Shown here piece after piece: positions 9,649 to 34,022 of a DNA stretch of 64,000 nucleotides. Below the pieces are notes generated by a model. It was not told the DNA's origin. It worked only from the letters and a program-made list of their open reading frames with translations, and did not search any database. Source of the stretch: a virus; IMG/VR virus record IMGVR_UViG_3300050821_006637, positions 25,067 to 89,066 of that record; one strand, written 5' to 3'. Position 1 is the first letter of the stretch. Each line of letters opens with the position of its first letter. Position numbers and translations under genes: made by a program.

Positions 9649-9674
9649 TAAAGTAGGAAAGAGGAGACGCTAAG

Positions 9675-11937: not shown

Positions 11938-14900
11938 ATGTCTCCCAAACCTCTTCCTCGCTTACCTAGTGTCCGTCCCTCTCCATATCGAACCAAATCC
12001 CTCTCTAAAGCCTGGGGACATTCCAGCGAATATTCCCCCGACCTCTATTCTGCGATGGATTTTGATGGTGATGTGAAACGAGGCTTGATACCAGTAAAGA
12101 ACATCGCCCAACCGAATGACTTCTGGTGTCATCCCTGCTGTGTGGCGATGATTTGTCACTACTGGGGAGTAGGACCGAAAAACGTCGCCTCTATCGCCAA
12201 AGCCCTCGGCACGACAAGGAAGTATTCCACAGACCCCAGAAAAGAAGTTCAATTCTACAAATCTCTCGGATTACAAGTAGAAGATAAGCATGAGATGACT
12301 TTGGAGCATCTCATGCACTATTGGAAGATTGGATGGCCTTGTCAAATACTTTTACAAGAATATGGAGACCCGACAGAGGAGGAGAAACATCCCGACGCCA
12401 AGAAACACGGAGCTACGAGTAAGGATGACGAGGCTGCCTATGACTACGGACACTCTGTCGTCTATGTGGGAGGACCAGCTCTTGGTCTCATCTTTTGCCA
12501 AGATCCCAGCCTCGAAAATATTATGAGTAACGAAGGGGGTGACGAGGCGAAGGGGTTGATGCCCATTCCTGTTTTGAAGTTCCTCAAGGTATGGCACGAC
12601 AGAGACCAGTGGGGTCATCAATATGTGCGATATGGAATCGCCGTCGGTCCTCCTCGTTGTGTTTCAACTAAAGGACTCAAGTCTCAAGTCGTTGCCGTCC
12701 CTGGTCGCTCTAACCAGCAGATAGCCAAGACACCATTGAGCGGAGGAAATCTTTTTGGGCAGACTCCTGAGACGGAGGAAATGCGTCCTGTCTGGTACGG
12801 AACTGGAGAGGGGAGGAATCCAAAGAACCCAGAATTGACGGAAGACCACCCAAAGCACAGATTGAAGAGTTTAGAGAAGAGTGATGGACATAAGCCTACT
12901 CTTGCTGTTGACTTAGATGGAACCCTCGCCGAGTATGATGGATGGAAGGGAGAGGAGCACTTTGGAAAACCTCGTCAAGGTGCCAAAGATGCGATGCAAG
13001 CCTTCAAGCAAAGAGGCTACGAAATCATCATCTTTACGACACGAGGCAACACAGAATTAGTCCGTCAATGGTTGAATGAGAATGGAATAGTCTTTGATTA
13101 CATAAATGAGAATCCCCACCAGCCAGAAGGTTCCAACGACGGAAAGCCGATTGCCGACCTTTATATAGATGACAGAGCAGTGGATGCCAGAGGCGAGTGG
13201 AGTAAGATAGTCTCCGAAGTTGAAAGAAGGCTACGAAGTAAGCCAGAGGAAAAGAAATCAAAGTTCTCCTCCACGCAGTTCAACCTCGCAGAAGCAGGCT
13301 ATCCCCGCTCCCAAGGTTCTCCCCTTGAAAAGATAAAAGAACTCCAAGATAGAATCTCGGATGACGATTTGGCGGATGATGGTAAAGAGAAGGAGCACCA
13401 CGTCACCTGTCTCTATGGTATTCATTCTGAGAACCCAGAAGAAGTGAAGAAGGTGGTAGAGCACTGGGTGAGGCATCATTCAAGGACTATCTATGCCAAG
13501 TTAGGTGAAGTCTCCATCTTTGCAGGTGGTGAGGATAAAGATTACGATGTGATTAAGATTGACGTGGAGAGTGAGGATTTGCACTCTTTGAATAAGATAC
13601 TCAAAGAAAGTTTAGAGCACACGGACACCCATCCTACTTATCATCCACACTTGACGCTTGCCTATGTGAAGAAGGGGATGGGAGAGCAGTACGCTCAAGG
13701 TTTGAATGGGATGTGGAGTCCTGGGCACGAACTCCTCTTCCACAAACTCCATTTCTCAGATAAGGATAGAAAGCACACGATAATTGACCTTTGGGACTTG
13801 GCGAAGAATGAAGTCCCTTCCAAGTGTCTCCTCTGCGGCAGTCATAAAATCAAGGCTTTCCAAGATGGTGAGCCAGGATGGAGATGCACAGAAGCTCCTT
13901 GTGAGTGGTCGTTGACTCAAGCGGGAGCACCGAATGACCATATGGAGGCTCCTGGCGGGATGACTGTCATCCAAAACCAGGAACCTTGGGAACGGAGCGG
14001 AGGAGAGAATCAACACTGGGAGAGGGACGGACAACTCTTTTACTTCGGTCCCTCATTCCAAAATCCTTCGTATCCAAACTATCCTAGAAAGAAGGATTTG
14101 GATGAAGCCGAGGGTACACAGCAGCCGAAAACAGAGGAACCGAAGCAAGTAGAACAGCCAGAACAGGCAAGACAACCAGAGCAACAACCATCTGTTCCAG
14201 TTGAAAGGTCAAATCAATCTATAGAACCACTACAACAGGATAAAGTAGAATCTGCCCCAGTGCAACAGGATGACTCGGAAGAAATTCATCATACCATTGG
14301 AAAATGGATAGATGACAGATATGCGGATAAATTTGCTGAATATGCGTCGGCTGTTCCACAGGTTCGTAACTGGTTGAAATGGGTTGGACAGCAACCAGCT
14401 TCTGGAGAAAGCGGTATTAATGAGGCTGTTTGGGTAGAGGATGCAGATGTAGTTTCCAATATGGTGATGGCATCCCAACAGAATCCAGCCATCCTTAATG
14501 AAATCCGTCCTGGCTTTGGGCATATGAAGATAAGAGAGGAAAAACAGAAACAGCAGCAGGCAACCCTTCCACTTCTCGTCCCAATAAAAGACCCTAAGAA
14601 CTTCGGACAGATTTTGAATAGAGGACAAACGGCTGGAGGATTGGCGATTCCTCTAAACATTAGTATGGAGAAGCGTTCCTATCCTCCAGAGATTGGGCAG
14701 TTCGTTGTTTTTAGAAACCCAGAAGGAGAAACCATTCAACTTGGCAGGATAAAAGATGTCCAGCCAAGAGAGAACAAGTGGGATATTAAGATAGAGCCGC
14801 AGTATAGACAAGAGTTTGAAAAGGATGAACTGGAGGCTTATGAAAATGGGCTCAATGCAGGGTACTCCCCAACTGACGAACTACCATTCCCAAAGGAACC

Positions 14901-17900
14901 TAAACTTGCTCAACTCTTTTATGCAGGGGTGTATGACCGACGGAACTATCGTATTCCGGGTTCTGCCCTCGGTACACCTGCTTGGGGAGGTGACGTAAGA
15001 GAGTTTTGGGATGGATGGTATGCTTTGGAATCACATCGTTCCATTTTTTCCTATCTAAAACATTATAGACCAGATATCCTAGATGAAAGTGACCCTAGTT
15101 CTGCTAATACATTGGCAACCCAATTAAATCCAATAGTAGAAGAATCATGGTTTCAGGAATTAAGAAAGAATCCTTATGCTGGGAAATTAGATTACGAACG
15201 GATAGTAGAAGGAGTCATCAACACTAGATTCCCAAAAGCCTCTAAATCCCTCCATATCAAATCTCAACAGACTTGTCCCGACGGCACTCCTCGCGACAGA
15301 AACACGAATAGTTGTGACGGACATAATGTTCCTATCGTCACAGAAATGGGAATAGAGCAGGGAGACCATCACATTGGTGGGGAGATCCCCTCAAGTGGCA
15401 AAGGTTATATTCAGCCAGGATTAGATGCCTCTGCGGGCATTCCCAATGATTATCCACAAGAATGGGTCTTCTACCTCCAAGCCTATAACCGATGGCGAGT
15501 GAAGCCTGATATATTAGGTGAGAGAAGATTGCGGATGGGGTATGAGAGGAGAAAGTCTCCGCAGGATATGGCATTACAGAATGATGAGGAGTGGAGATTA
15601 AAGGAGCAGAATAATACCTTTGAAAGCCAGATGGAATTAGTTAAGAACCCGATGGGGAATGCTTTAGAGCAGGTGATGGAAAAGAGAATCACTTGTCCCA
15701 ATGGCACTCCTCGTCCTTATGGCAGTGACACCTGTTCTGGCAGACAAGCAGATTCATGGGATGGAGTAGTAGATAAGAATAACAAGCCTGGATGGGCAGA
15801 ATATCCAGACTATGCTCCTGTCTCTGGTGTTGATACACGGAAGCCAAAGGACAGAGAAGAACCTGTCGTTGGACGAAGAAGATTCTTTAATAAAAAGGAT
15901 ATGGAGGAAGGACAATCTGCACAGCCAGCAGAACCGAAGGTAGAAGAACCCAGCACTCCTCATGGATGGGGAACTGCGGGGGATGAGCCTGTTGCTCCTA
16001 TTCCACACGAGATACCGGAAGATGAGAATCCTCCTTCTCCAGCACAAGGGATGAGGAGGATGTATAGAGGAACTAGAGGGGGTGAACTGCCACACGAACA
16101 CGCCTACTTCTCAGACGAAAGAGGGCTTCCAGGCGTCGCTCGTGCCTTCGCTAAAGTTCCTGGCAGACGATTAGTCTATGTGGATGTGCCAGAAGAGATA
16201 GCACAGCAAGGATTACAGACAGGAGCAGTGACAGAGGGAGAATATAAATTACCAGAGGAGTACAGACGCCAAGTTCGGTATATGAAGTTCTTTAGTACGA
16301 AACGTGCGCCATATCCGAATCAACATCTCTGCCCCGATGGAACTCCTATGCCTCCAGGCACTGGGACGTGTGCTGGAAGAGAAGGTTGGGTTCCGTGGAC
16401 AGAAGAGCAGAGGCAGCAGTTCACTTTGCAGGAGCCACCGAAAGGACCGAAGCCTTATCAACAAGCACCGATGAGGGGGAAGTACCCAAACAATCCTTCT
16501 GTTCGTCTGTCTCCCTACTCTACGAAACATTTGGATGAGCAGGGTGGAGAAGTTCCACCCAGAGGACAGATGAAGGAAGCGGAGAAGTATGACTTCGTCA
16601 CCCTGCCTAAAGATGTTTCTGGGACGAACTGCGGAAATTGTCTATTCGTCAAGGAGAAAGGGGAGGGACACATCTGTGGTCATCCCAAGCTCTATGGCTT
16701 GCCAGTGAATGAGAACAACTGCTGTGCGTTATGGGATGCGAAGAGTACGATGCGAGCGTGGGAAAAGAAACTCTGTCCCAACGGCACTCCTCTTCCTCGT
16801 GGCATTGGCACTTGTGCAGGACGTGGATTGCCAATGCACTTTCACGATAACGAAAATTATAATTCCGTTGCAGCAGGACCAGACCACGTAGAAAGTCCCG
16901 AAGTGCTTGAGGGACAGGATTGGAAGTCTTTAGAGAAAGCGATGTCCTGGCTCGCCTCCGGGAGCGGAGGTGATTTAGTAGATGAACCAGAATGGAAAGG
17001 TCCTCGTCCCAAGAAAGTCAAGTCCTCTCCTTATTCAAAGATGCTTTACAGAACCAAGGCAGAACCTCCGTATACGGGTGTATTCAAAGATTCATTGGGA
17101 CGGAATACCTGTTATCAAAACGGAGTCAAAGTTTCCTGCGTCCAAATGGGCATAGAGGAAGACCCAGAGCCAGAACAAAGTAATTCCCTCTTGGCAGGCA
17201 CTCAACACGCGGGAGGGGCAGCGAGTAATGAATCCCCGACGATGTATGGAGGGGCCGGAGGTTCCGTCACTCAAGTAAGATACGCTTTGATATTTGATAG
17301 TAAGGGTAGGCTGTTGGTGAATGAGGAGGATATGGAGTTGGGAGGATTCGTTTGGCAGATTCCAGGCACCACGGAACAGGAGGTAGAGAAGGGGATAAAA
17401 GAGCAGACGGATTTGAAAGTGAACTTATTTGGAAAGTTGGGAGATGCTGGTAGTGGACAAGGGTATTATCTATTTGAAGTGAAGGAACAGAAGAGACAGG
17501 GACGAAAGGCACTTGAGCCAATAGAGCCTGCGGAACCAGAGGAGCCCAAAGAGACGGAGACAGAATCGCCGAAAGAACAAAAGACAGAGGAGCCATCTTC
17601 TTTCTCTCCACCTGTGCAGAATGAACCAGTAGAAAGGGACTGGGGTGATGATTTTCCAGAAGAGGGGTCATATGGTCTAAGGATGCCCGAGCCTAAACCT
17701 TCTCAACTAGAAGTTCAACAAGAGATAGATGCAGAGCCATCTTGGGGCGAATCCCCACGGACGGAGGAATTACAGTTAATCTATCAACACGCTGAGCAGT
17801 ATAAAACACAAAGAGCACAAACAAGTAATTATGATATTGAATTACCAAGTGACGAGGAAATAGCTACAGGACAGTACGAGTCATTTGGAACTGGAAGTCT

Positions 17901-18642
17901 CCATCAACTAGAAATCGGTAAGCTAATCATTAATGGGGCGTCTTATTTTACGAAAGGATTGCCAAAAGACAAGACTGTTAATGAGATAATGGCTAATAGA
18001 TTAGGTCACATTGCTGGGGTTCCTGTCCCGTCTGTCCGGCAAGTTAATTTGATGCATCTGCCTCGAGAATCTGAAGCACCCGATATAGCTATTCTAACGC
18101 CGTGGCTAGAGGGACAGACAGTAGAAGAGATAATGACTGGGGTTTCTACTCTAACAGAAGAAATGGGCAGTGATAGAAGTTATGGAATGGATTTCCTAGA
18201 ACAAATCGTCCAACCAGGAGATGTAGACTTACAGATACTCTTTTCCTTTTTAGCAGGATTACAAGATAGGCATTTGGGAAATTATATGGTTTCTGGAGGT
18301 AGATTAATCTCCATTGACCATGAATGGATGAGACGGGATGACACTCAAGAAAAGTTCCATAGCATTGGAGAAGATGACTTGTTATTCCTTTTATCCCAAC
18401 AGATGTATGGTTCACCTCCTTATAGGGTAGATGACATTCCTTTGAGTCAAGATATTGCTAAGATACTAGCTTCTAAAAAGGAGGAATATATTGCAGCGTG
18501 GAAAGAGGTAGACCCAACAGAATTAGGATTAGATTCTTTCTTAAAACGACTAGAGGTACTTGAGAGATTTAGCGAATCTGAGGATAATACCTATAAGACC
18601 CTATCCTCAATCTCTAGACAGATATTCGGAATACCAAAATGA
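11938..18642 (+). CDS. 2234-aa multidomain polyprotein: C39-like peptidase, HAD phosphatase, Acb1-like 2H phosphoesterase, ART-like, HiPIP-like, Nudix-like, C-terminal HipA/PI3-4K-like kinase
   Basis: QPNDFWC...GHSVV...QDPS; AVDLDGTL...YIDDRA; HVT...HLT; YRG..YFS..EGEY; NCGNC...C...CCALW; QDRHLGNY...IDHE. Confidence 0.85.
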   Translation: MSPKPLPRLPSVRPSPYRTKSLSKAWGHSSEYSPDLYSAMDFDGDVKRGLIPVKNIAQPNDFWCHPCCVAMICHYWGVGPKNVASIAKALGTTRKYSTDPRKEVQFYKSLGLQVEDKHEMTLEHLMHYWKIGWPCQILLQEYGDPTEEEKHPDAKKHGATSKDDEAAYDYGHSVVYVGGPALGLIFCQDPSLENIMSNEGGDEAKGLMPIPVLKFLKVWHDRDQWGHQYVRYGIAVGPPRCVSTKGLKSQVVAVPGRSNQQIAKTPLSGGNLFGQTPETEEMRPVWYGTGEGRNPKNPELTEDHPKHRLKSLEKSDGHKPTLAVDLDGTLAEYDGWKGEEHFGKPRQGAKDAMQAFKQRGYEIIIFTTRGNTELVRQWLNENGIVFDYINENPHQPEGSNDGKPIADLYIDDRAVDARGEWSKIVSEVERRLRSKPEEKKSKFSSTQFNLAEAGYPRSQGSPLEKIKELQDRISDDDLADDGKEKEHHVTCLYGIHSENPEEVKKVVEHWVRHHSRTIYAKLGEVSIFAGGEDKDYDVIKIDVESEDLHSLNKILKESLEHTDTHPTYHPHLTLAYVKKGMGEQYAQGLNGMWSPGHELLFHKLHFSDKDRKHTIIDLWDLAKNEVPSKCLLCGSHKIKAFQDGEPGWRCTEAPCEWSLTQAGAPNDHMEAPGGMTVIQNQEPWERSGGENQHWERDGQLFYFGPSFQNPSYPNYPRKKDLDEAEGTQQPKTEEPKQVEQPEQARQPEQQPSVPVERSNQSIEPLQQDKVESAPVQQDDSEEIHHTIGKWIDDRYADKFAEYASAVPQVRNWLKWVGQQPASGESGINEAVWVEDADVVSNMVMASQQNPAILNEIRPGFGHMKIREEKQKQQQATLPLLVPIKDPKNFGQILNRGQTAGGLAIPLNISMEKRSYPPEIGQFVVFRNPEGETIQLGRIKDVQPRENKWDIKIEPQYRQEFEKDELEAYENGLNAGYSPTDELPFPKEPKLAQLFYAGVYDRRNYRIPGSALGTPAWGGDVREFWDGWYALESHRSIFSYLKHYRPDILDESDPSSANTLATQLNPIVEESWFQELRKNPYAGKLDYERIVEGVINTRFPKASKSLHIKSQQTCPDGTPRDRNTNSCDGHNVPIVTEMGIEQGDHHIGGEIPSSGKGYIQPGLDASAGIPNDYPQEWVFYLQAYNRWRVKPDILGERRLRMGYERRKSPQDMALQNDEEWRLKEQNNTFESQMELVKNPMGNALEQVMEKRITCPNGTPRPYGSDTCSGRQADSWDGVVDKNNKPGWAEYPDYAPVSGVDTRKPKDREEPVVGRRRFFNKKDMEEGQSAQPAEPKVEEPSTPHGWGTAGDEPVAPIPHEIPEDENPPSPAQGMRRMYRGTRGGELPHEHAYFSDERGLPGVARAFAKVPGRRLVYVDVPEEIAQQGLQTGAVTEGEYKLPEEYRRQVRYMKFFSTKRAPYPNQHLCPDGTPMPPGTGTCAGREGWVPWTEEQRQQFTLQEPPKGPKPYQQAPMRGKYPNNPSVRLSPYSTKHLDEQGGEVPPRGQMKEAEKYDFVTLPKDVSGTNCGNCLFVKEKGEGHICGHPKLYGLPVNENNCCALWDAKSTMRAWEKKLCPNGTPLPRGIGTCAGRGLPMHFHDNENYNSVAAGPDHVESPEVLEGQDWKSLEKAMSWLASGSGGDLVDEPEWKGPRPKKVKSSPYSKMLYRTKAEPPYTGVFKDSLGRNTCYQNGVKVSCVQMGIEEDPEPEQSNSLLAGTQHAGGAASNESPTMYGGAGGSVTQVRYALIFDSKGRLLVNEEDMELGGFVWQIPGTTEQEVEKGIKEQTDLKVNLFGKLGDAGSGQGYYLFEVKEQKRQGRKALEPIEPAEPEEPKETETESPKEQKTEEPSSFSPPVQNEPVERDWGDDFPEEGSYGLRMPEPKPSQLEVQQEIDAEPSWGESPRTEELQLIYQHAEQYKTQRAQTSNYDIELPSDEEIATGQYESFGTGSLHQLEIGKLIINGASYFTKGLPKDKTVNEIMANRLGHIAGVPVPSVRQVNLMHLPRESEAPDIAILTPWLEGQTVEEIMTGVSTLTEEMGSDRSYGMDFLEQIVQPGDVDLQILFSFLAGLQDRHLGNYMVSGGRLISIDHEWMRRDDTQEKFHSIGEDDLLFLLSQQMYGSPPYRVDDIPLSQDIAKILASKKEEYIAAWKEVDPTELGLDSFLKRLEVLERFSESEDNTYKTLSSISRQIFGIPK

Positions 18643-18839
18643 AGATAGAAGTTCACTTTCGAGACCAAATTATCGGCACAGGCACCAGCCGAGGGAATGA
18701 AGTCTTTTGGGAAGGTGAAGGCTCCAACCGAATAAAAATGATTGCCGCCCATTATGAACGACAAGGGTTCAAAGGAGACGTTCTACTCCAAAAGATGTTA
18801 GAAAGACTCCAAGGAATGTGGTGGGCTCAAGAAATATGA
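18639..18839 (+). CDS. Small kinase-associated protein (partner 1)
   Basis: ATGA overlaps on both sides; resembles 22392..22646. Confidence 0.65.
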   Translation: MKIEVHFRDQIIGTGTSRGNEVFWEGEGSNRIKMIAAHYERQGFKGDVLLQKMLERLQGMWWAQEI

Positions 18840-21800
18840 ACTTCCTCTCCCTCAAAGAAATTGAATTTCGTCTAAAAGAAACCGACAATCCCGAATGGAT
18901 TGAACGGGCTACTCCCCTTTTGAAAGAAGCCTTCCGCCAATGGCGTCATCTTCACTCAAAATCTGCGAGTCGCTCTCCACAAGGGAAGGAAATGGCTTCT
19001 GTCCATCCTTCTCCTTACTCAAAGATGCTTTATTCTAAGAAAGCCCGTCCAAAAGTCACTTTTACTGGCAGACAGACGGATGCACAAGGACGGCAGACTT
19101 GCTTTAGAGGTGGAAAACACGCTCCATGCGAGGAATTTGGCGGACAGAATCAAGGATGGACGGGAGTAGAGCAAGAGCACTTACAGAAGGAGGGAGAAAA
19201 GGACTTAGAAACGACGGAAATAGAGCAGAAGAAGCCAAAACTACCTGAAAAAGTGGGCGAAAATCCGCAGATACAGCAACCAGAACAGCCAGAAGCAGAA
19301 GAAAGGGCGAAAATACAGCCAAATCCGTCAAAAGTAGAAGGATTTACGGAGGAACAGCCAGAACAGGTGAAAACCACAGAGGAGCCGAAGAAACCGCTTC
19401 CAAGTTCTCCGTCTACGAAACCTATTTCCAAATTTAAGATATCTTCGGAAAACGCCAAGTTAAATCCTTATTTTGATGATGGGTATTGGGAGGAGATTAA
19501 GGAGTCCATACGGGGTTTAATTTCGAGTGGAAGTGAATCTTCTATACAAACTCAAGATATAACACAGGACCAAACGGCTGGTATCCTCGCTTCATTTGTT
19601 GGGGCTCCTCCTAATTCTACTATACAAGTGTTCGATGTTAGCCAGAAGAGTGGGGGACGTTACACTACCCTTGATGTGACGAATCCTATGTTTAAGAATT
19701 GTGTAAGAACTCTACTCGTCCGTTCAAATGGCACTAAGGAGATAAGGAATGAAGAATTAGTCCTAAAGCCGCAATACAGAAACAATGGCGAGGGGTCTAA
19801 CATCTTTTATGCTCAAGTGCAAAATGCGGCTGCTTATGGGTTCTCGGAAATATCTACTTCAGCGGGTAGTGGACGAGATATGAACGGGGTTACTACATGG
19901 CCACTGCTGGGTTATGATGCTTCTATCCAAGAACTTTTTGATGGGTTAAGAAATCCTGAATCCTATGACTATTTTAAAAGAATTTTCCCAAACGCATACA
20001 GCATAAGTGAAATTATTGAGTCGCCCGAGGTGCCTTTATCTAAAGACCAGTTGCGTCAGGTTAATTATTCACTGGCTTCCTTGGCACAATGGCGGGGTTT
20101 GCCTTACACTAAGAAAAATGTTGTGAATGGAAGGGATTGGTGGAAGGCTTTTATACAGCAAAGTCGTCATCTTACTATTTCTGTTGATATGACATTTAAC
20201 CTACATGAAGGCTCTACCTCCCGTAGGATTTTAGAAGCCTATATGAAACAACGTCAAAGGAGAACCAAGGCAATGGATATGCCGAAAGAAGATTATGAGG
20301 ACATTAACTTAGCCCCGTGGGAGGAAGAAGCCTTAGAACGTGCGTGGGATAGTTTGGATAAGCAAACTTACGGACAGAAAGGTCTTCCTCCACTCCCCGA
20401 CCAGACAGAAACTACTCTTAAATCTCCTCCCAAGGTTCCTCAATCTCGCTTCCATTCCTTCTTCCACGAACATAAAGCACTCGGAGAACGGAAAGCACCT
20501 CCTGCTCCAGGCAAGTATCCCAGTGACCTCAATGTCTCTAAGGTCACTTCCAATCCCTTACCCAATGCCCATCCGCCAGGAGAGCAACCACCCCCAGTTC
20601 CAGAGAATTCCGTCCAACACGGAGCACCAGATACGGCTGCTCTCCAACAGATAGAACGATTGGTTGGAGAAAGGGGACAGGGGACTGGATTAGCACACGA
20701 AATCCGTGCCCATCAAGTGGATGCGTCTATCCTCCAGCAATTCCAAGCACACGGAGTTGCCTCACTCACGGACTTATCTAGCTTTCTAAGACAGCAAGGA
20801 GAAGCGGATTCTGCGAACTTAACAGAATTCCACGATGATGAGTCTCCTTTCGTGGTTTTGAGTCAACCTCAACAGCAGATAAGTGGACAGAATGCGCCTT
20901 CCGTGGTAGTGGGGAAGCCATATGATAGAGTTATCCATCTTTTAGAGGAGGCATTCCCTGGAGTTCACTTCTTGCCAGTGGAAGAGGCGGCGAATCAGTT
21001 GAAAGAGGCGGCTCAGAGCAATCCGTTGCCAGCAGCGAAAAGTTTTGGACAGAAGTCTAACTCTGTTGTTGACAACACGAACACGAAGTTGCCGCGGATG
21101 CCGAGTCACCAGACACAGAGTACGAGCAAGCCGGGAGGTGCCCAGCAACAGCCCCAGCAAGCCCCTACACAAGCCCCACAAGCTGTTCAACCAGTGCAAC
21201 AGGCTATACCAGCACCTTTGGCACAGACGCAGTCTACAACACATTTCCAGCCCCAAATACAGCAACCTGTTGAACAATCTGCTCAACCACTAAACCAAGC
21301 GTCAGTTGAGCCAATTCAACAAATCGAAGCTCCACTCACTGGGACACAAGATTCCGGTGCTCTAAATCTTTCTCCAGAAGGACCGAATGCTTATTATGAC
21401 TATGCGTCTGCTTCACTCTACGGAGAAAAGATGGCAGAGCAGGCGCAGAAACTTTATGAACAACAAGGACTGCCTTATGAAGAAGCTGCCTCTCTAGCAA
21501 AGGATGCTTATAATCAAGCAGTGGACGAATGGAATCAAGCACGATGGAACGAAAAGGGAATGAATGAAGCCCCCCTCCCAGAAGGAGAAACCCTAACTTC
21601 TCTTACTACAGAAATAGGACGTTTTCTTAGTACGGCACCAGAAGTGAAGAAAGAAAAACTTGGGAAAGGCGAGAATGGTGCTTGGAACGTAGAAGTAGAA
21701 GGTGGTTATCGTGGTGTGCAGAAATTAGGGAGAGATGAAGCTTTTGATGCCGAAAGAACCACTGGGATTAAAAGTGGAACTATGTATCGCAGAGAAATTG

Positions 21801-22399: not shown

Positions 22400-22646
22400 A
22401 GTTCCTTTCTATAAGAATGCAAACTTCGCCCAGGAACTAATAGGATGGATTGTCCTTCGAGATAATCACCTCTCTGTCTATCCGTCTGATGCCCTGTCTC
22501 TGAAAGCCATCTTAGAGGGTCCTGTCATCAATAAAGATAACGAAGTTATCCTGTCGACAGAGGACCCCGAAGCCTGGTTGAAGGCACTTCCTCTCTTCTA
22601 TCGCGGTTCGTACTTCTGGGCTGGCAAAGCCGAAGAGGAAGAGTGA
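22392..22646 (+). CDS. Small kinase-associated protein (partner 2)
   Basis: Overlaps kinase gene stop; ends WLKALPLFYRGSYFWA. Confidence 0.65.
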   Translation: MLKVPFYKNANFAQELIGWIVLRDNHLSVYPSDALSLKAILEGPVINKDNEVILSTEDPEAWLKALPLFYRGSYFWAGKAEEEE

Positions 22647-22736
22647 TGAAGACTAAACATTTCTTGCCTTAAACATCACATCTAATCTATCGTTCCTATA
22701 GGGTCTTTCTTTTCTTCCTATTAGGAGACTATAGCC

Positions 22737-22961
22737 GTGCCTCAAATTAATCCACAGACTGGAATCCCAGAACCTTTGTCGCAGACTCCGGAGGAGAGTT
22801 TTCGAGCGACTTTGGACGACGTGATTCTGGTTATTCAAAAGTTGGCTCCACTCAGTGCCGATTTGGATAGTTTGGTTGAAACTCTTCAATTCGCACTGAA
22901 GAATGATTCTCAGTTGAATATGATTCTTCATTTGGTTCGTCCGGTGGGGTTGAAAAGGTAA
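22737..22961 (+). CDS. Hypothetical protein
   Basis: TAGGAG RBS, GTG start, 74 aa helical. Confidence 0.55.
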   Translation: MPQINPQTGIPEPLSQTPEESFRATLDDVILVIQKLAPLSADLDSLVETLQFALKNDSQLNMILHLVRPVGLKR

Positions 22962-23034
22962 ATTACTAATAGAGGGGTGCTTGGTTGCTATACTATAGTA
23001 GGGTTTCAGCAATTTCCTATTATAGGAGACAATC

Positions 23035-24096: not shown

Positions 24097-27000
24097 AGAA
24101 GTTCTATCTCTGTTAGATGCAAGGGAAAAGGATTTCCCTTTCCTCGACTCGAGTCAATATAGTTACAAATTAGCAGGAGGATCATACGGGCATGACGTCC
24201 CAGTCGCCATTCGAGATTTGGATATAGATGAAAAAACGATGAGCCTGTGGATTCCCGTTTGTGACGGCAATCGCAGAGATGGAGTAGGAGATTTGCTCGA
24301 TGTCCTTGGAATTGACACTTCTAGGCATAAAAAGAACCCCATATGTTTATTAGATCATGGGAAACAGATTCCACTTCCAATTGCAAGAGCCAGAGAAGAC
24401 CCCAAAGATGAGGAATCTTACACCTTTCGAATAAATCCTGGGGAAAAGACGGCAGGATGTAGGGCATATTTTTATCAAGGAAAAGAGAATTGTGATGAAG
24501 TATTAGGATGCAAACAATTTGAGCACGGGATTCTATGTCACCAATTGTTCCATATGGCGGCAAACGGGTTTTTGAACTCAGGTTCCATAGGCTACCAAAT
24601 AATTTCTGCCGACCCACTTCCAGAAGATCCATATCGTGGCATACCACGAGGGATGCATCTACAAAGGATACTTGCCCTCGAGAATTCTTTAGTCGTTTTG
24701 CCGGCCTCTCAGGATACTGTAGGAAAGTCCACTAATACAGATGTATACCCCTACTCCGCCAAGCACTTGGAGGCTTGGGAATACACCCAAAAATCTCGCA
24801 TCTGTGGCTCCCCTCCCTCCCCCTACTTAATCAAAGCCTTCAGTTCCTTCGCTCCTCCTCATAAGGCACAAGTGGTAGGTGGCTATGATTCTAAAGGAAT
24901 GAGAACTATTATAGAAGATAGTTCTGGTAATCCTAGAGTCACTTCTAAACCATTAGGGAAAGGAGGAGTTGAAGATACTGCAAAGGATTTGTCTATTCAT
25001 ACAAAGTCGGCAGAAGCAATATTACACGGAAAACCACACCCCCCAGGATGTAAATGTGCCAAGTGTATCAAGGAACTCCCATCCAAAAAGTCCTGTTCTT
25101 GTGATTCCTGCTCCAAAGGTCACTCGTGTCCTTGCGACACGAAAACCAAGGGAGTGAAGGACTTAGAGAATCAACCTGCTTCTGCTCTTCCTGAGAAGCC
25201 GACGACGAAGCCTGTTCCCACGTCACAATCTGCTCCGGGTTCTCCGCAACCAGCACAGCAGACGAAAACACCGAAACAGGCTGCGAATGTAGGACAACAG
25301 ACTCCTCGTAACTTAACTCCTGCTCCTGCTCCAGTTCCTTCTCAACAGCAAGGACAGGCATCGCAGCAAGCGTCCGTTCAAAATACTCCACAAGGACAGA
25401 TAATAAATCCAGTTACGCCTAATGCCGCTCTCTCTGGCCTAAGTACTGGAGCAGTGGAGATACCACAAGGGCAGCAGATTCCTCTCGCTCCGGTTCCTAC
25501 TTTCAATCCTGCTCAACCTCAAAGAAATCCTGTCCAAAACACACCGCAAGGACAGACCCCTCCGCCTCTACCGAAACCAAAGTATCCCTACTCTCTACCT
25601 GTTCCCCCTGGTCAGCAAGCTGAACAAGCTCCACAAACCTCTGGTCCTCCTCCACTTACGCCTGAAAGACTTGCGGCTACGCAAAGAACGAATTTCAACC
25701 CCAAGAATCTTCATCTGAAGAAAGTCGATTACTCCAAGTTAACACCAGAGCAAGCGACGAAGAAAGCCACGCAAGCGGCTCTAGCTGCTGGTGCGAATAA
25801 AAAGCAAGCACAACAGATTGCGAAGCAAGTCGTAGAACAGATGAAGAGGATGGGGAATAGACAACATCGTCAACAGCGGAATGCTAGATGGACGCCCCAA
25901 GGACCGAAATCCTTGGATATGAATTTCCATATCAAGTCTCTCCGCTCTAAATATGGAAAGAAGTCCTTACCGAATACAGGTAGGAAGTTTGAGGCGACGC
26001 CAGATGGGTCTTCACTTACACCGAAACTTCGTGGTGCCCCCAAGGTTCCTGGTCCCAAGCCAGTTGGAGAAGGTGCTTCACAGACACCTCCTGTCACTCC
26101 TAAACAAGACCCTACTTTCAAACCAGTGAAAGAAACACCACCAGGAAATATTGAGGCGTATAGAAACGTCGGTGACGCCTCCAGTGGTGCATCAAATAAC
26201 GAATCTAGAGAACCTCTCACGGAAGGAAGTATTCTGCCAGAGGAAGGATTTGAAGAATACCAGGAATGGACTCCAGAGAGTAATGAAGTAGGAGAGGAAG
26301 GAAGTGGAGAAGCACAAGAATATTTAGAACCAGACCACATTGATTTATGGATAGGAAATCACGTAGCCAATCTTGTGGATTCTGGTGCCTTAGAAAATTG
26401 GAATAAGGAAGATGGTTTTGATGCCTCTATTACAGAAATAATGGATCAAATTAGTGACGAGGCAAGAGCAGAAGGGTTTGAGGGTGAAGAATATATCAAG
26501 ATTATGGATGGGGTAATAGAAAACCTTCGGCTCGTATGGCTTGATACATTTGGAGATTGGGGTGGTGAAGGAATCGGACCTTTTGAAAAATCCCTCCGCT
26601 CCAAATATGTGAACAAAGATTCAAAGAAAGAAAAGAACCCTCCAGCCAGACGAAATAAGAAGACTGCCAATCGTCATATGGCAGCAGGAATAAATTCTGC
26701 TTTGGATAAAAGTGCTGGACTTAAACATCTGGGAGTTCCTAGTATGAACATAGGGAACATAGGAATCAAATGGTTAGATAAAAAAAGTCTTCTGGGACTA
26801 CGAGACAAGTATAAGACGGCGAAGGGAAGACTGAAGCGACACAGGAAAGGTTCCCCTTCCAAGGCTTCTGTCCACGTATCCAGTAAAGACCTTGATAAAT
26901 TAAGAAAAGACGCCGAATCTAAAGGCGTTGCCGTCAAGTGGAGAAGTGATGATGGAAAAGGGATGGCGAAAGTCCTTTTAGAAGGTGATGGCGGCGTCAT

Positions 27001-29932
27001 AGAAAAGTTGGCGAATGCTCACGGGAAACTGAGGAAGAAGAGTCTTATGGGTAGTGAAGCCAAAGACTTTACTGATACGAAGAAGCCTTTGGGACCGATT
27101 GGAACCCTTCCAGGTACTACTCCAAGCCGTGAAAGAGAAACCCTCCAGGAAGCTCCTCTCACCGAAGGTGAGTTAAGTACGGAAAGACCTGGCGAGCCAG
27201 AAGCAACGGATGTATTGACAGCCCATAAAGAGGAAAAGAATATGAAGGTGAAGACGAAGGCTGCCGACCCGTTGACGGACCCCAATATGCCTCTCCCAGA
27301 AGAAGGAACGGAAGATTCCCTCCCCCTTGAGGGAAACCCAGACCTCGGTGCCACAGATGAGATGGGTGGAGACCTTGGTGATGAAGAAGACTTAGGTGAT
27401 ATGGGTGGTGATGAGTTTGATATGGGTGGACTGGATGAAGGTCCCGAAGCTGGTGGATTAGGCGAAGAGGGTTCTGGCGAAGAACCCTACGGAATGCAGG
27501 TGATGCGTCGTCTGTGGGATGACACCGCTGGTCTCCTCCACGAGTATGACCAGTTTATGGAACACTTGGAAGACGAAGCCACTCGTGGTCTCCTCCAGTC
27601 AATGCTTGAGTATCTGTCTTCCCACTTGGAACGATTGGAAAGCCACGTAGCCAGTCATCCTCGCTACGGAGAATTTCCGGGTCTTGGTGGTGAAGAGGGT
27701 GAAGAAGGAGCCGAAGGGGAGATGGGTGAGGAGGCTCCTGGCTTGGAACCAGAAGAAGGTGAAGACGTAGAAGCCTCCAGTGGACAGAGAGAAGAGCCGA
27801 CACCAGAAGAAGCTTTGATGGGAATGGCACCAGATGCCGCTCAAGGTATTCCTGGTCCTTTTAAGAGTTTAGGAAGCGTGAAGGGTCGCTTAACGAAAGA
27901 GCAATACTTCGCTCGTGTCAAGGCTTTGAAAGGTCTTCACAAGACGAAAGCCATTGATGGCGGAGAGATGCCGCACGATGACGCCTCTTCAACCCAAGGT
28001 GAAATCCAAGGGATGAATGAAGAGGCGACGAATGGAGCCGAGACTCCTCCTGGCTTTGACCACGAGCATAAGAACCTCACCACTCTCGCTACGCTCGCTC
28101 GTCTCCGTAAGGATTTGATGGGAATGGGCGCTGGCGACCAGGAGGGTGAAGAAGAATTGCAGAAGCGACTGTCTCTCATCTCTAAGATTAAAAAGATTGA
28201 GTCCTTGGTGACAGACAAGGCGGAAGAGATTCCTGGTAAAGAGAGTGAGATTATCACTGGGCAGACTGGAAAGAAGTCACAGCCTAGTGAGCATACGGAT
28301 TTGACTCCTGAAAAAGCGGGACGAATGTTAGAAGAGAATGAAGCTAACGGAGAACCTTTAACCAAGAAGCAACGCGGCTTCTTTGGAGCGGTACGCGGGA
28401 AGAAGGATAAAAAAATGAGTAAGAAGTCTTTGCTGCAAGAGCGGGTCTCCCTGCGTAACCGCTGGAAGGCCATCAAACAACTCCACGCCAAACATCTTGA
28501 TGAAGTTAATCAAGAGAAATCCCTCATCTCCTCTATGTATAAAGGACTTGAATCCAAACAGGATATGAAGTCCGTGCAAGAGAAGCAATGGCTCCATAAA
28601 AGATTCAAGGCTCTTGAAAAGAACCTTGACCCGTATTCTCAAGAGAAGACCTACATCGTCTCTCGCTTCAAGGACTTGAACTACTCCTTGAAGAAAGAAT
28701 ACAACTGGGAACCTGGAGCGGAAGACAAGAAGGCGAATGATACCGTCAAGGCTTTCGCCAAGAAGTTCAACTCCAACCACAAGAATCTTTTGGGTGAGGC
28801 GAGGAAGTTTCTCACGGAACTCAAGTCTGTCTCCCCAATGGCTTTCGGTGACCCGCATCGCCAAGAAGCGTACCACCTTTCCAAGTGCTTGCACCAGATT
28901 ATCGGTGATGTTTGTGGGAAAGGTTCCGTCCAGGCTGGATTGCAGAACTTGGCTAAGACGCTCGTCACAGAAGAGATGCCTGCGGAAGTTGGGAATAAGC
29001 CGAAGGGACCTTCCAAATACAATCCTAACGGCGAGCCGATGCAGCAGTGGGAAGAGTCGGAATCCGTCGTCAAGGGTAAGAAGAATGTTTCTTACGAATT
29101 CCCAGAACTTGCCAAAGAGAGGGAAGAAGTAAACGTAGAGCACCCGAACTCCAATCCACAGGCGAAGCCACACGATGAGCATATGCCATACCACGAGGGA
29201 GAGCATCTTCCCATCGGTGGTGTGAATGCGAAGGGAATTGGCGAGCGAGGTAGCTTCCCTGAGATGTGTGAGGAAGATGGTGTTGTCAACCTCACCGACC
29301 CGAAGGGACCTTCCAAATACTCTCCAGGCAAAGAACCCCTCCAGCAGTGGAAGGAAACCCTCGTCAAAGGTCTCCAGTCCATCGGTCAAACCGCCAACTT
29401 CTTTAAGATGCTGTCGTATAAGAAGGACTTCGGCGACGATGACCAGGAGATGGCTGGGAAGTTCGTCCTCATCCTTGCCCCCATTGAATCCCTCGCTGGT
29501 CATCTCGGTATGGAAGCCGAGGAAGGACTTGAGGGATTAGAAGAAGGTCCCTTCGGTATGGATGAAGGGTTAGAAGGTGAGTGGATGGAAGAGGAGATGG
29601 AAGAGCCAGAGCACGCTGACATCGCTAATGAAATGGGCGAAGAGATGGGTGGAGAGGGAACTCCTGGCGAGTTGATGGAGGAAGAAGAGGGTGAAGAGGA
29701 AAATGAAGAGGAGGCTGCACACCCAGAGGCTCCTGGTGAGATAGGTGAGAAGAAACAGAAGAGCCTCGCTCACGCAACTACGAAGGAAGGTTCCAATGGC
29801 AAGATGCCTAAAAGGGGTGGAATGAGTGAGAAAGATTTGAATGGTGTGATGACGGACAATATGCACCAGACACAGACGCTTTTGAATCTGCAACAGAGTT
29901 TACAGAACCTGTTGTCGAGATTACCGAATTAA
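24089..29932 (+). CDS. HK97-type prohead protease fused to a very long scaffold/cargo region (1947 aa)
   Basis: RDGVGD, NPICLLDHG (His), SGSIGY (Ser), LENSLVVLPA (Glu); directly upstream of MCP; C-terminal amphipathic helix. Confidence 0.85.
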   Translation: MNKEVLSLLDAREKDFPFLDSSQYSYKLAGGSYGHDVPVAIRDLDIDEKTMSLWIPVCDGNRRDGVGDLLDVLGIDTSRHKKNPICLLDHGKQIPLPIARAREDPKDEESYTFRINPGEKTAGCRAYFYQGKENCDEVLGCKQFEHGILCHQLFHMAANGFLNSGSIGYQIISADPLPEDPYRGIPRGMHLQRILALENSLVVLPASQDTVGKSTNTDVYPYSAKHLEAWEYTQKSRICGSPPSPYLIKAFSSFAPPHKAQVVGGYDSKGMRTIIEDSSGNPRVTSKPLGKGGVEDTAKDLSIHTKSAEAILHGKPHPPGCKCAKCIKELPSKKSCSCDSCSKGHSCPCDTKTKGVKDLENQPASALPEKPTTKPVPTSQSAPGSPQPAQQTKTPKQAANVGQQTPRNLTPAPAPVPSQQQGQASQQASVQNTPQGQIINPVTPNAALSGLSTGAVEIPQGQQIPLAPVPTFNPAQPQRNPVQNTPQGQTPPPLPKPKYPYSLPVPPGQQAEQAPQTSGPPPLTPERLAATQRTNFNPKNLHLKKVDYSKLTPEQATKKATQAALAAGANKKQAQQIAKQVVEQMKRMGNRQHRQQRNARWTPQGPKSLDMNFHIKSLRSKYGKKSLPNTGRKFEATPDGSSLTPKLRGAPKVPGPKPVGEGASQTPPVTPKQDPTFKPVKETPPGNIEAYRNVGDASSGASNNESREPLTEGSILPEEGFEEYQEWTPESNEVGEEGSGEAQEYLEPDHIDLWIGNHVANLVDSGALENWNKEDGFDASITEIMDQISDEARAEGFEGEEYIKIMDGVIENLRLVWLDTFGDWGGEGIGPFEKSLRSKYVNKDSKKEKNPPARRNKKTANRHMAAGINSALDKSAGLKHLGVPSMNIGNIGIKWLDKKSLLGLRDKYKTAKGRLKRHRKGSPSKASVHVSSKDLDKLRKDAESKGVAVKWRSDDGKGMAKVLLEGDGGVIEKLANAHGKLRKKSLMGSEAKDFTDTKKPLGPIGTLPGTTPSRERETLQEAPLTEGELSTERPGEPEATDVLTAHKEEKNMKVKTKAADPLTDPNMPLPEEGTEDSLPLEGNPDLGATDEMGGDLGDEEDLGDMGGDEFDMGGLDEGPEAGGLGEEGSGEEPYGMQVMRRLWDDTAGLLHEYDQFMEHLEDEATRGLLQSMLEYLSSHLERLESHVASHPRYGEFPGLGGEEGEEGAEGEMGEEAPGLEPEEGEDVEASSGQREEPTPEEALMGMAPDAAQGIPGPFKSLGSVKGRLTKEQYFARVKALKGLHKTKAIDGGEMPHDDASSTQGEIQGMNEEATNGAETPPGFDHEHKNLTTLATLARLRKDLMGMGAGDQEGEEELQKRLSLISKIKKIESLVTDKAEEIPGKESEIITGQTGKKSQPSEHTDLTPEKAGRMLEENEANGEPLTKKQRGFFGAVRGKKDKKMSKKSLLQERVSLRNRWKAIKQLHAKHLDEVNQEKSLISSMYKGLESKQDMKSVQEKQWLHKRFKALEKNLDPYSQEKTYIVSRFKDLNYSLKKEYNWEPGAEDKKANDTVKAFAKKFNSNHKNLLGEARKFLTELKSVSPMAFGDPHRQEAYHLSKCLHQIIGDVCGKGSVQAGLQNLAKTLVTEEMPAEVGNKPKGPSKYNPNGEPMQQWEESESVVKGKKNVSYEFPELAKEREEVNVEHPNSNPQAKPHDEHMPYHEGEHLPIGGVNAKGIGERGSFPEMCEEDGVVNLTDPKGPSKYSPGKEPLQQWKETLVKGLQSIGQTANFFKMLSYKKDFGDDDQEMAGKFVLILAPIESLAGHLGMEAEEGLEGLEEGPFGMDEGLEGEWMEEEMEEPEHADIANEMGEEMGGEGTPGELMEEEEGEEENEEEAAHPEAPGEIGEKKQKSLAHATTKEGSNGKMPKRGGMSEKDLNGVMTDNMHQTQTLLNLQQSLQNLLSRLPN
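29000..29356 (+). repeat. Internal duplication KGPSKY(N/S)PxxEP(M/L)QQW
   Basis: ccgaagggaccttccaaatac occurs exactly at 29000 and 29300. Confidence 0.7.
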
Positions 29933-30015
29933 TTTTCACGGAAGCAAGTTCGAACGGAGACGGAATGTCGGTCCCAACTTAGAGGCCGGGGCCGGAACAG
30001 AAAGAGAAGAAGAAG

Positions 30016-31482
30016 ATGGCTGCTCCTACTTTTGAGACGGTAGCCCTGGCCACCCAGCAGAACGGCGAGGCTATCCAGTCGTTGAATAAAACCCTCGGGA
30101 CTGTTGTTGATAAACTCTCCCGTATGCCAATGCCCGGACAACCGACGCCGGAACAAGCATTCGGTACTCCTTGGATTCGTAATGGTGAGAGTTCTTTGGA
30201 TGACTCCAGAGGCTTCTCCTACCTCAAAATGATTGGGCACATCGCTGGCTTCGTCCCAGACGAGCAGTGCAAGCATGAGCGGAACCTCGCCATGAGAATG
30301 GCGAAGTGCCTCTATGCGGATGCTGGCAACGACGGCTATCAGTGGGCTTCTCAGAATCGCCTTGGTGAGAAGAAATTCCTCGCTCCACTCGCTCCTAACT
30401 TCCTCCAGGACAACTTCGTTGACCGGAGCTTCCGTCGTGAGATGAAGCAGATGGTCGCCGCAGGGACGGACGGAGCCGACCTGGGAGAAGCGAGCTGGAT
30501 TAAGCGAAAGATGCTTTCCCAGCAATATGGGACGAAAGCCCTTTCTTGGTTGAATGAACTCACTGGTGGTGCTATCGTCGCTCCGCCTGAGATGGGTGAG
30601 TTGATTGAACTTCTGAGAAATAAAGAGGCTCTGGTCAATGCAGGAGCCAGAGTTGTTCCTCTACCTCCACAGGGTAGATTAAAGTATCCTCGCCAGACTT
30701 CTCCATCCAATACCTTCTGGGTTGGTGAGAACTCTCCTATCACAGAATCCATCGTCGGTACTGGTGAGATTACTCTGCAAGCTAAGAAGCTCGCAGTCCT
30801 CATCAAGGCACCGAACGAGTTGATTCGTTTTGCCTCACCTGCGGCAGAGGCGTTGCTCCGAGACGATATGACGAAGAGTTTGGCTCTTGGTTTGGATTTG
30901 GCTGGATTAGAGGGACAGGGGAGTGACGTCAAGCCTCGCGGTGTGATTAACTATCCTGGAATCAACAGAATCCAGTCCTCTCAGATTGGTGTTAACTCTG
31001 GTGGTGTGGTAGTTGGACAGGACATCTACCGAATGATTGCTGCGGTAGAGGAAAGTGACGCGGAGTTCGAAGCGTACATCATGCGTCCGAAGACTCTGTA
31101 TAAGTATTATCAGCTGCGAGCTGATGCCGTCGTGGCGGGTGATGCGGCTGGTCCGTATCTGTTCAACCTGATTAGAGAGGCACAGGATGACACGCCCGCT
31201 TCGTTGGCTGGTTATCCCGTGGTGAAGTCGACTCAGGTTTCTCAGACTCGTTCCTATGCGGCTGCGACAAATCTGACCTATGTGGTTGGTGGAATGTGGA
31301 GTGATATGCTCATCGGTATGTTCGGTGCGATTGAGTTCGCGGCGACCACGATGGGTGACACCGCTTTCGTCAATGACCAGACGTGGGTGCGTGGTATTCT
31401 GTCGGCGGACGTGCAGTTGAGGCACGAGGCGGCGTTCGTTTTACTTGACAATCTCAACACTCTAGTTACGGCGGCAAGCTAA
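30016..31482 (+). CDS. Major capsid protein (HK97 fold) with N-terminal delta domain
   Basis: TGGAIVAPPE, WVGEN, KKLAVLI..PNELI, PRGVIN, LAGYPVVKS, D...RH..AF; likely maturation site TK|ALS at K174. Confidence 0.93.
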   Translation: MAAPTFETVALATQQNGEAIQSLNKTLGTVVDKLSRMPMPGQPTPEQAFGTPWIRNGESSLDDSRGFSYLKMIGHIAGFVPDEQCKHERNLAMRMAKCLYADAGNDGYQWASQNRLGEKKFLAPLAPNFLQDNFVDRSFRREMKQMVAAGTDGADLGEASWIKRKMLSQQYGTKALSWLNELTGGAIVAPPEMGELIELLRNKEALVNAGARVVPLPPQGRLKYPRQTSPSNTFWVGENSPITESIVGTGEITLQAKKLAVLIKAPNELIRFASPAAEALLRDDMTKSLALGLDLAGLEGQGSDVKPRGVINYPGINRIQSSQIGVNSGGVVVGQDIYRMIAAVEESDAEFEAYIMRPKTLYKYYQLRADAVVAGDAAGPYLFNLIREAQDDTPASLAGYPVVKSTQVSQTRSYAAATNLTYVVGGMWSDMLIGMFGAIEFAATTMGDTAFVNDQTWVRGILSADVQLRHEAAFVLLDNLNTLVTAAS

Positions 31483-33182: not shown

Positions 33183-33194
33183 GGAAGGGGAAAC

Positions 33195-33947: not shown

Positions 33948-33964
33948 GAAGTGTTTATCCAAGA

Positions 33965-34008: not shown

Positions 34009-34022
34009 AAGAGGGATGTGAT

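Follow-up and report, generated by a model that had tools for sequence, protein, structure and literature searches.

Can the protease which matures a phage capsid also cut very long multi-enzyme proteins, so that separate enzymes are set free inside the head? The question is raised by a locus in the IMG/VR virus record IMGVR_UViG_3300050821_006637, a linear sequence of 89,066 bp which is about 85% complete. We have analysed a window of 64,000 nucleotides (positions 25,067 to 89,066 of the record), which contains the block of head-morphogenesis genes of a phage not yet cultured. Positions given below are those of the window, unless they are marked as genome positions. Its plus strand encodes two giant proteins, which we will call A (2234 residues, 11938–18642) and B (18818–22399; 1193 residues from a GTG start, 1187 from the first ATG). 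They are followed by a protease-scaffold protein, C (1947 residues, 24089–29932), and by the major capsid protein (MCP; 488 residues, 30016–31482, with a Pfam Phage_capsid match). A first-pass annotation of this DNA had noticed a lysine motif which recurs between the folded domains of A and B and is also found in C and in the MCP, and had proposed that it is a cut site. Our answer is that the prohead protease probably cuts A and B into separate enzymes inside the capsid: the argument is built on the sequence of the motif, its distribution and its place in the proteins.

All the motif copies listed in the first-pass annotation are found in the sequence; in what follows a slash marks the predicted cut. 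Those in A are at K20 and K24, K245 and K248, K310 and K314, K440, K719, K1103 and K1108, K1320, K1530, K1663 and K1667, K1707 and K1857; those in B at K48, K75, K484, K521, K553, K741 and K913. Protein C has K/SLRSKY twice, at K616 and K834, and the MCP has K174/ALSW. Their number was compared with 1000 composition-preserving shuffles of each protein, the other 112 open reading frames (ORFs) being the control. The broad form of the motif, K[SAGDH][LMF], appears 16 times in A against a shuffle mean of 4.9 and 31 times in C against 7.3, values which none of the 1000 shuffles reach. It is also enriched in B (7 against 2.6, reached by 17 of the 1000 shuffles); the MCP has 2 copies against 1.1 (307 of 1000). 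The 112 other ORFs show no enrichment (51 against 48.3, 379 of 1000).

With the core form, K[SA][LM], we find 8 copies in A (shuffle mean 1.5; one shuffle in 1000 reaches this number), 12 in C (mean 2.6; none) and 2 in the MCP (mean 0.5; 70 of 1000), while in the 112 other ORFs the count is not significant (21 against 17.7, 239 of 1000). Neither of the control patterns, R[SA][LM] and K[LM][SA], shows enrichment in the same shuffle test. A ranking of all tripeptides seen at least five times in A, B and C together leads to the same word: KSL is the most enriched of them (15 seen against 2.04 expected, Poisson p 5e-9), and KDL is found 8 times against 1.58. The broad motif is enriched in the giant proteins as proposed, but it is looser than the core K/[SA][LM], and K/D[LM] is weaker. 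In the shuffle tests the enrichment is positive for A and C and null for the other ORFs, and the density claimed for the protease-scaffold is found with both forms of the motif.

A much larger sample is provided by the relatives of C. A profile search with its protease domain gave 974 representatives (clusters at 50% identity) at E ≤ 1e-3, 249 of them at E ≤ 1e-30; no relative of the domain was detectable among 50,697 cultured phage records. These proteins have total lengths from 252 to 2169 residues, with an N-terminal protease followed by a variable tail. We counted the motif beyond residue 290 in the best 149 of the 974 relatives, leaving out the phage's own protein. KSL is found 400 times against 39.0 expected (10.3-fold), KSM 113 against 15.8 (7.1-fold), KAL 306 against 51.0 (6.0-fold), KAM 111 against 20.7 (5.4-fold) and KDL 195 against 45.8 (4.3-fold). 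The corresponding words with arginine are not enriched in these 149 proteins, neither RSL (22 against 27.5, 0.8-fold) nor RAL (23 against 37.7, 0.6-fold), and the permuted words KLS, SLK and LSK are merely 1.4–1.7-fold up. At least one KSL lies beyond residue 230 in 134 of 148 proteins. Where the protease domain ends, 69 of the 78 proteins which could be matched with a pattern have K/SL; 71 of the 149 gave no match to this pattern.

Judged by these counts, the signal formed by lysine, a small residue and a hydrophobic one is a clade-wide property of the scaffolds fused to this protease. An aromatic residue is often present 3–4 positions upstream of the predicted cut lysine. From the pattern and from precedent, K/[SA][LM] is likely to be the cleavage specificity of this protease. 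The precedent is phage HK97, in which the capsid protein is cut at K103/S104 with L105 as the next residue, according to the cited part of PMC10275583; the first-pass annotation had correctly stated that the HK97 protease cuts after lysine (K/SL).

What kind of protease does C contain? Its domain covers residues 1–249 (24089–24835) and is followed by a Lys/Glu-rich, scaffold-like extension of about 1700 residues (24836–29932) with 18 K[SAD][LM] sites, for which we found no Pfam or PHROG family. The first 250 residues or so are conserved among relatives. An AlphaFold2 (AF2) model of residues 1–267 has a predicted local distance difference test score (pLDDT) of 77.9. Aligned with VIA-align, the model has T4 gp21 as its best match (5jbl_A, Z 9.7, root mean square deviation 3.1 over 139 residues), well above the next unrelated rows. 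The runners-up are the proteases (assemblins) of human cytomegalovirus, varicella-zoster virus and Kaposi's sarcoma-associated herpesvirus, with Z 5.5, 5.0 and 3.6. Foldseek against the PDB alone is weak, with gp21 ranked first at E 0.14; against BFVD the model has 93 matches at E ≤ 1e-3, many of them named prohead protease.

The Pfam profile Peptidase_S78 (PF04586) is matched by 27 of 41 aligned relatives at E ≤ 1, the best at 9.3e-6. In these 41 sequences the candidate catalytic residues H90 and S166 are invariant, H80 is invariant as well, and H146 and H190 nearly so. K249, at the end of the domain, is also invariant, and at P2' at least 90% of the aligned sequences have leucine. Most relatives end the domain with SPYL[IV]K/SL; this phage has K/AF at K249. 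The predicted fold and the matches of the relatives support the assignment of the first part of C to the prohead serine proteases of the HK97/S78 assemblin kind, as the name protease-scaffold had implied. Two repeats of the form GPSKY.P..EP.QQW are also present in the extension, at nt 28991–29092 and 29291–29392. A similar repeat, of the form ...DYSPNKEPMQQH..., is found in three copies in one relative (L007, 4265–7534); this repeat may be a capsid-binding unit.

The MCP gives a further position for the signal. Its N-terminal domain resembles a delta domain (residues 1–174, 30016–30537) and ends at K174; the predicted mature protein, of HK97 fold, has residues 175–488 (30538–31482). The Pfam profile Phage_capsid (PF05065) covers residues 185–478 (E 2e-33), and phrog_617 is matched with E 3e-39. 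The sequence Y-x-x-K/[AT]LSWLNE is kept in all eight aligned MCPs and conservation jumps right after the lysine. GTK/ALSW had been taken as the likely delta-domain junction: the conservation of K174/AL in eight out of eight proteins and the start of the Pfam profile at residue 185 agree with it. The signal marks the predicted junction between delta domain and mature MCP, the predicted junction between protease and scaffold at K249, and at least 12 places in the scaffold.

We now turn to the cargo. Its profile matches and homologues make A a multi-enzyme protein of the polyvalent type, in which the modules are shuffled. The first of them is a C39-like cysteine peptidase (residues 52–190, 12091–12507), which matches Pfam Peptidase_C39_2 from position 2 to 142 of its 143 (E 3.8e-5, 24.7 bits for a cut-off of 24). 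A HAD-like phosphatase follows (residues 318–438, 12889–13251), with a phrog_1238 match of E 1.6e-25; both the peptidase and the phosphatase had been named in the first-pass annotation. The next module is a 2H phosphoesterase (residues 464–579, 13327–13674), with its H-x-T motifs at H488 and H571. It passes Pfam 2_5_RNA_ligase2 (PF13563; E 3.6e-7, 30.8 bits for a cut-off of 27), but the Acb1 profile itself (PF23474) only reaches 17.4 bits for the same cut-off value. We therefore keep the assignment to the 2H superfamily but not the more precise name of Acb1-like nuclease.

An ART-like module is a lead only (residues 1335–1460, 15940–16317): it has no Pfam match, and its top ESM-Atlas neighbours are Tox-ART-HYD1, PARP and Arr clusters at 0.85–0.90, with few shared features. 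The GNAT-like region of B is also a lead from a language model. A module about 64% identical to the ART-like one ends an otherwise unrelated protein of 1049 residues on another contig (P0161, which has no Pfam or PHROG family), so that this module moves between carrier proteins. The C-terminus of A has a PI3K/HipA-like kinase, with its catalytic-loop region around residues 2103–2131 (18244–18330). Of the two kinases which had been proposed, that of B passes the cut-off of Pfam PI3_PI4_kinase (30.2 bits against 27.1), but that of A is a weak match below it (E 0.005, 17.2 bits); the loop G..DRHLGN...L..ID is common to both.

The ten K[SAD][LM] sites of A are K20, K88, K108, K310, K719, K1103, K1320, K1663, K1667 and K1857. 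K310/SL lies 8 residues ahead of the HAD module, and K440 is 2 residues past its end. The protein also has four knuckles of the form CP[DN]GTP-x(6)-C-x-G, each of them at the start of a module (15274–15321, 15694–15741, 16330–16377 and 16774–16821); the homologues carry the knuckle too.

Besides itself, A has five homologues. P0006–P0008 have the same modules in a different order, with 43–48% identity over only 11–14% of the length of A. P0008 carries Pfam ART-PolyVal (E 3.7e-22); in A and B the Pfam profiles MPTase, MuF and ART-PolyVal have no match. Residues 1100–2234 of A have two shorter homologues. Cultured phages only match A through single stand-alone HAD or 2H genes, which cover 5–8% of its length each. 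The motif is enriched again in P0006–P0008, with KSL 10 times against 2.16 and KAL 12 times against 2.74. No KSL enrichment is found in the distant polyvalent proteins P0009 and P0010, which are an unclean control: the residues before their 2H module are ambiguous and there is one K/SI.

Are the sites found at the borders of the modules? One answer comes from modules which occupy different positions in different proteins. A K/[SA][LF] site is found 12–13 residues before the LAVD anchor of the HAD module in four out of four homologues, although the module is placed at residues 322, 1236, 752 and 2490. In the same way a site precedes the 2H module in three out of three homologues, at a different position in each protein. 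A general test was made with the 42 K[SAD][LM] sites of five polyproteins and their Pfam/PHROG envelopes: five of the sites fall within 12 residues outside an envelope edge, a zone with 2.4% of the residues (p 0.0035; p 0.0020 with a lysine null). Sites are also closer than random lysines to the breakpoints of homology, with p 0.18, 0.37, 0.0008 and 0.11 in four tests and a combined value of 0.0022.

The sites also form two larger elements. One is a leader: residues 1–24 of A (11938–12009, plus strand) end as VRPSPYRTK/SLSK/AW, and A, P0006 and P0008 all have, in their first 31 residues, a leader of the form [VR]-x-P-S-[PRS]-[FY] followed by a K/ site. This form recurs inside the chains and is similar to the sequence with which the protease domain of C ends (SPY..K/). 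The PSP[YF] leader is, by analogy, a candidate for a targeting peptide. The other element is a copy of the N-terminus of the mature MCP (roughly its first 18 residues) inside A, with the form K/AMSWL..GG.LV..PE (residues 1667–1690, 16936–17007, plus strand). In a BLASTP comparison of the MCP with A the best segment pairs MCP 174–192 with A 1667–1685 (10 of 19 residues identical, E 0.07); with P0006 the identity is 13 of 18 (E 0.001). The segment of A begins exactly at the cut-site lysine and has further K/ sites on both sides. A pattern scan found the element also in P0006–P0008 and in four of the 149 relatives of the protease-scaffold.

Protein B is the weaker case of the two giants. Its N-terminus has an SPYSKMLYSKK/ element, followed by a region which resembles GNAT (a lead), a Pro/Gln-rich middle part and the C-terminal PI3K/HipA-like kinase in residues 1025–1096. 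A homologue search with B gave two proteins, one of them B itself. The N-terminal part of B can be aligned with the C-terminus of P0007, and its residues 256–521 align with residues 178–464 of P0008: modules of B occur fused within these two proteins. A separate protein of 715 residues, P0163, corresponds to the 670 C-terminal residues of B with 72% identity and has a leader of 45 residues, which ends at the conserved site QK/GL. Among the sites which had been listed for B, QK/GL is kept in P0163 but EK/GM (K913) is lost there.

A highly charged protein of 937 residues (5054–7867, plus strand; 9.0% Lys and 8.9% Arg) is possibly a third cargo protein, a weak assignment. It opens with an SPSLF variant of the leader, which ends with SPSLFKPKFKK/SL at K28; it has 2 K[SAD][LM] sites in all and no Pfam or PHROG family. 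At the start of the record there are two Lys-rich ORFs, at genome positions 23–211 (62 residues) and 198–1247 (349 residues), with two KSL each; the longer one has 4 K[SAD][LM] against 0.69 expected. They may be further head-internal substrates.

The process which would explain these features is as follows. The scaffold, the MCP and the cargo chains A and B, perhaps with the 937-residue protein, would assemble together into the prohead. Once activated, the protease would cut all three kinds of protein at their common K/[SA][LM] signal, wherever it is exposed. Small scaffold peptides would leave the capsid; the folded enzyme modules would remain inside and be carried along with the DNA into the next host. 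The predicted products of A would include the peptidase (residues 25–245 approximately), the HAD phosphatase (315–440), the 2H phosphoesterase (441–719) and the kinase (1858–2234). The predicted cutting of MCP and scaffold at the motif is the firmest step; the loading and cutting of A and B, the retention of the products, their injection and an anti-defence role are what we infer beyond it.

Several observations weigh against this explanation. The core motif is not significantly enriched in B (2 against 1.1, reached by 295 of 1000 shuffles), so that the claim for B stands for the broad form but not for the core one. Sites are not depleted within domains: 4 of the 42 lie inside, where 12.3% of the residues are found (p 0.40). 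Two of the ten K[SAD][LM] sites of A, K88 and K108, are in its C39-like peptidase. The first-pass claim that sites lie in linkers is supported at the edges of the envelopes but not by avoidance of their interior. Of the four tests on breakpoints, two (p 0.18 and 0.37) do not come near significance. The flanks of the sites differ weakly in their hydrophobic fraction (0.257 against 0.277, p 0.022) and do not differ in Pro/Glu/Gln content (p 0.34). When BLAST segments are used as a guide, 28 of 34 sites fall in their interior, which holds 69% of the residues: a null result, and an uninformative one, because such segments run through conserved linkers. An AF2 model of A 1090–2234, made from an alignment of six rows, has a mean pLDDT of 37.6 and gives no usable domain borders. 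As for the protease, the phage's own domain does not match Pfam Peptidase_S78 even at E ≤ 10, and C as a whole has neither a Pfam nor a PHROG match. Profiles for portal, large terminase and MuF gave nothing above threshold in the record, about 85% complete. Finally, there are two other candidate cutters in the phage, both overlooked in this role in the first-pass annotation. A carries its own C39-like peptidase above the Pfam cut-off, and a trypsin-like ORF of 239 residues lies outside the window at genome positions 17363–18082 (Pfam Trypsin_2, E 3e-16).

These points lead to other explanations. The motif might be mainly a signal for docking or loading, through which proteins would bind to the inside of the capsid, to the scaffold or to the protease, with cutting limited to the leader or absent; or else the C39-like peptidase might release the modules, possibly after injection. 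The copy of the MCP N-terminus and the leaders with PSP[YF] would serve for docking no less than for cutting, and sites are not depleted inside domains. The cited part of PMC5512222 also offers precedents: Iyer et al. 2017 proposed self-processing of polyvalent proteins through built-in peptidases, and the virion RNA polymerase of N4 is packaged unprocessed. What speaks against these alternatives is a motif specific for lysine with defined P1' and P2' residues, which coincides with the MCP junction and with the end of the protease domain in the pattern of a cleavage site and is identical to the K/SL of HK97. As for the other cutter, C39 peptidases cut after Gly-Gly and are not known to cut after Lys. 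We consider these alternatives unlikely, although they are the strongest rivals. In favour of the trypsin-like peptidase, many S1 peptidases cut after basic residues. It seems very improbable as the author of the lysine cuts: arginine is not tolerated in the motif, the gene is surrounded by glycosyltransferase genes and distant from the head block, and the motif follows the S78-type family in 149 representatives which were picked by that domain alone; besides, the S78 protease of HK97 already cuts K/SL.

It might also be argued that A and B are cytoplasmic late proteins with many domains, and that linker cassettes exchanged with the neighbouring scaffold gene brought the motif into them, where it plays no part in proteolysis. 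No domain known to anchor proteins in the virion, such as MuF or a portal-binding domain, was found in them, B is little enriched, and linker-like K/[ST]LR.KY.K elements are present in scaffolds and polyproteins alike. An exchange of linkers would hardly account for sites which stay beside the same module wherever the module sits, nor for an enrichment which is replicated in P0006–P0008, in spite of the short part of A to which they are related. The leaders are at N-termini and the genes are within the head block, and we find this possibility quite improbable. A last proposal concerns only the C-terminal kinases of A and B, which could be toxins paired with small immunity genes downstream; it is compatible with the cargo explanation. 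The PI3K/HipA-like catalytic loop is common to both C-termini, and a small ORF follows each giant: one of 66 residues after A (18639–18839) and one of 84 residues after B (22392–22646). The two small ORFs are dissimilar to each other and have no Pfam match, and the shorter one overlaps both of its neighbours and may not be real; such a pairing appears improbable to us. Cargo loaded together with the scaffold and cut by the protease of C at a shared signal is the best explanation overall, and we place it just on the probable side. What favours it over its rivals is that the motif is tied throughout the clade to an S78-type domain and has a precedent in HK97. We are more doubtful about an extended version, which we put forward as a tentative idea: that this large and wholly uncultured clade uses a polyprotein strategy for capsid cargo, with a portable code by which any enzyme module could be put into a chain, brought into the prohead and set free as the capsid matures. 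The code would consist of the PSP[YF]..K/ leader, the K/[SA][LM] joints and the cassette which mimics the cut site and N-terminal arm of the MCP. Such a cassette would be a new device for capsid docking or for the presentation of substrates, with no described counterpart.

How does this system compare with those already described? Polyvalent proteins have many unrelated enzymatic domains per chain, are encoded by late virion genes and, according to prediction, enter the host together with the DNA; Iyer et al. 2017 ascribed their processing to a hub zincin-like metallopeptidase (MPTase), and a few of them have at the C-terminus an assemblin-like peptidase which probably processes them (passages cited from PMC5512222). 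Protein A is similar in having several enzymes (C39_2, HAD-like and 2H), in belonging to the late genes and in having a homologue with ART-PolyVal. It departs from the class, as it is described in those passages, by three features: no zincin-like MPTase or MuF was found, the protease is a separate gene fused to a scaffold, and a cut-site signal with statistical support is common to cargo, MCP and scaffold. We found no description which links polyvalent proteins to site motifs of a prohead protease in the literature searched. To our knowledge HK97 has no separate scaffold and no packaged enzyme cargo, and its protease differs from that of C, which carries the long extension. Common to this phage and to gp4/gp5 of HK97 are a protease of S78/assemblin fold, an MCP with a delta domain and a lysine followed by Ser-Leu (cited part of PMC10275583).

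As in MuF-fused effectors, effector domains are encoded here in the head block and delivery with the virion is presumed. The domain itself was said not to be recognisable, and the profile search agrees: Phage_Mu_F (PF04233) has no match in A and B at E ≤ 0.01, nor at E ≤ 1 in the 89-kb record, which is about 85% complete. The gp21-type proteases of SPN3US and phiKZ cut after Glu, mostly to remove propeptides. In T4, the internal proteins and Alt have a capsid targeting sequence which is removed by gp21; Alt is a packaged ART which is injected. A resembles Alt in having a short N-terminal leader which ends at a predicted site for the prohead protease, and differs from the T4 proteins by having many modules in one chain instead of one enzyme per protein; the leader and the specificity are different too. 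In SPN3US and phiKZ many internal head and ejection proteins are cut by the prohead protease (PMC10052503, PMC5694885 and PMC7411985, in the parts cited), and some of those of SPN3US are cut at several sites, with 14 sites in 9 proteins (PMC10052503). With respect to what is described there, the present phage is distinguished by an HK97-type lysine motif between the enzyme modules of a single chain and by a genome of about 89 kb. The anti-restriction proteins DarA and DdrB of P1 are processed and built into the head (PMC5512222, PMC12810830, in the parts cited); they are separate proteins with other domains, and no shared repeated site motif is reported in those parts.

The processing of packaged proteins by a prohead protease is already known in SPN3US, phiKZ, T4 and P1. 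If our explanation is true, this principle would also hold, in a new form, for phages of the HK97 type, with whole kits of enzymes made as one chain and a readable cut-site code common to capsid and scaffold. It would offer a testable alternative, at the level of the sequence, to metallopeptidase processing of polyvalent proteins. The Lys-Ser/Ala-Leu/Met code would allow one to predict the borders of modules and the mature products in hundreds of uncultured relatives, and in laboratory phage systems it would be a natural handle for filling capsids with proteins of choice.

The genes of the block deserve some further comments. The first-pass annotation had put the two giants immediately ahead of the genes for the protease-scaffold and the MCP: they are indeed on the same strand and within 12 kb, but B and C are not directly adjacent. 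Between them there are the ORF of 84 residues, an ORF of 127 residues on the minus strand and a GIY-YIG homing endonuclease (23035–24096). The MCP gene begins 84 nt after the end of C. This order of protease-scaffold and MCP genes is also present in the relatives L003 and L007, and L007 has a protein of 844 residues with several modules upstream of them. The contigs of the relatives are mostly short (12 loci in the viral scan and 18 in the metagenome scan). A megablast of the region gave no cultured relative, and the best MCP matches from cultured phages are 23–31% identical and cover at most 70% of the protein.

Many ORFs of tail or surface type have only 0–2% Lys. We considered this as a possible footprint of a lysine-specific protease on virion proteins and rejected it: Arg, Asp and Glu are equally depleted, and the depletion is one of charge in general. 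Extreme cases are a protein of 833 residues (37481–39982), with 0.1% Lys, 0.7% Arg and 0.7% Asp plus Glu, and one of 250 residues with no Lys at all (33195–33947). Charge-poor ORFs of virion type are found at 32490–35112, 37481–39982 and 46132–49491, and at L031:1513-9129.

Selfish elements crowd the late region. Besides the GIY-YIG gene, a LAGLIDADG endonuclease comes directly after the MCP gene (31621–32508), weak intein/HINT signals are present within a UDP-glucose dehydrogenase gene, and an ORF of 610 residues has internal LAGLIDADG and intein-splicing signals; the loci of these last two are 2788–4548 and L031:14188-16020. Upstream of the cargo genes, at 1035–2834 and 8875–11402, there are a B12-binding radical SAM protein, an FkbM methyltransferase and a protein of 575 residues with several methyltransferase domains, which may form a modification module.

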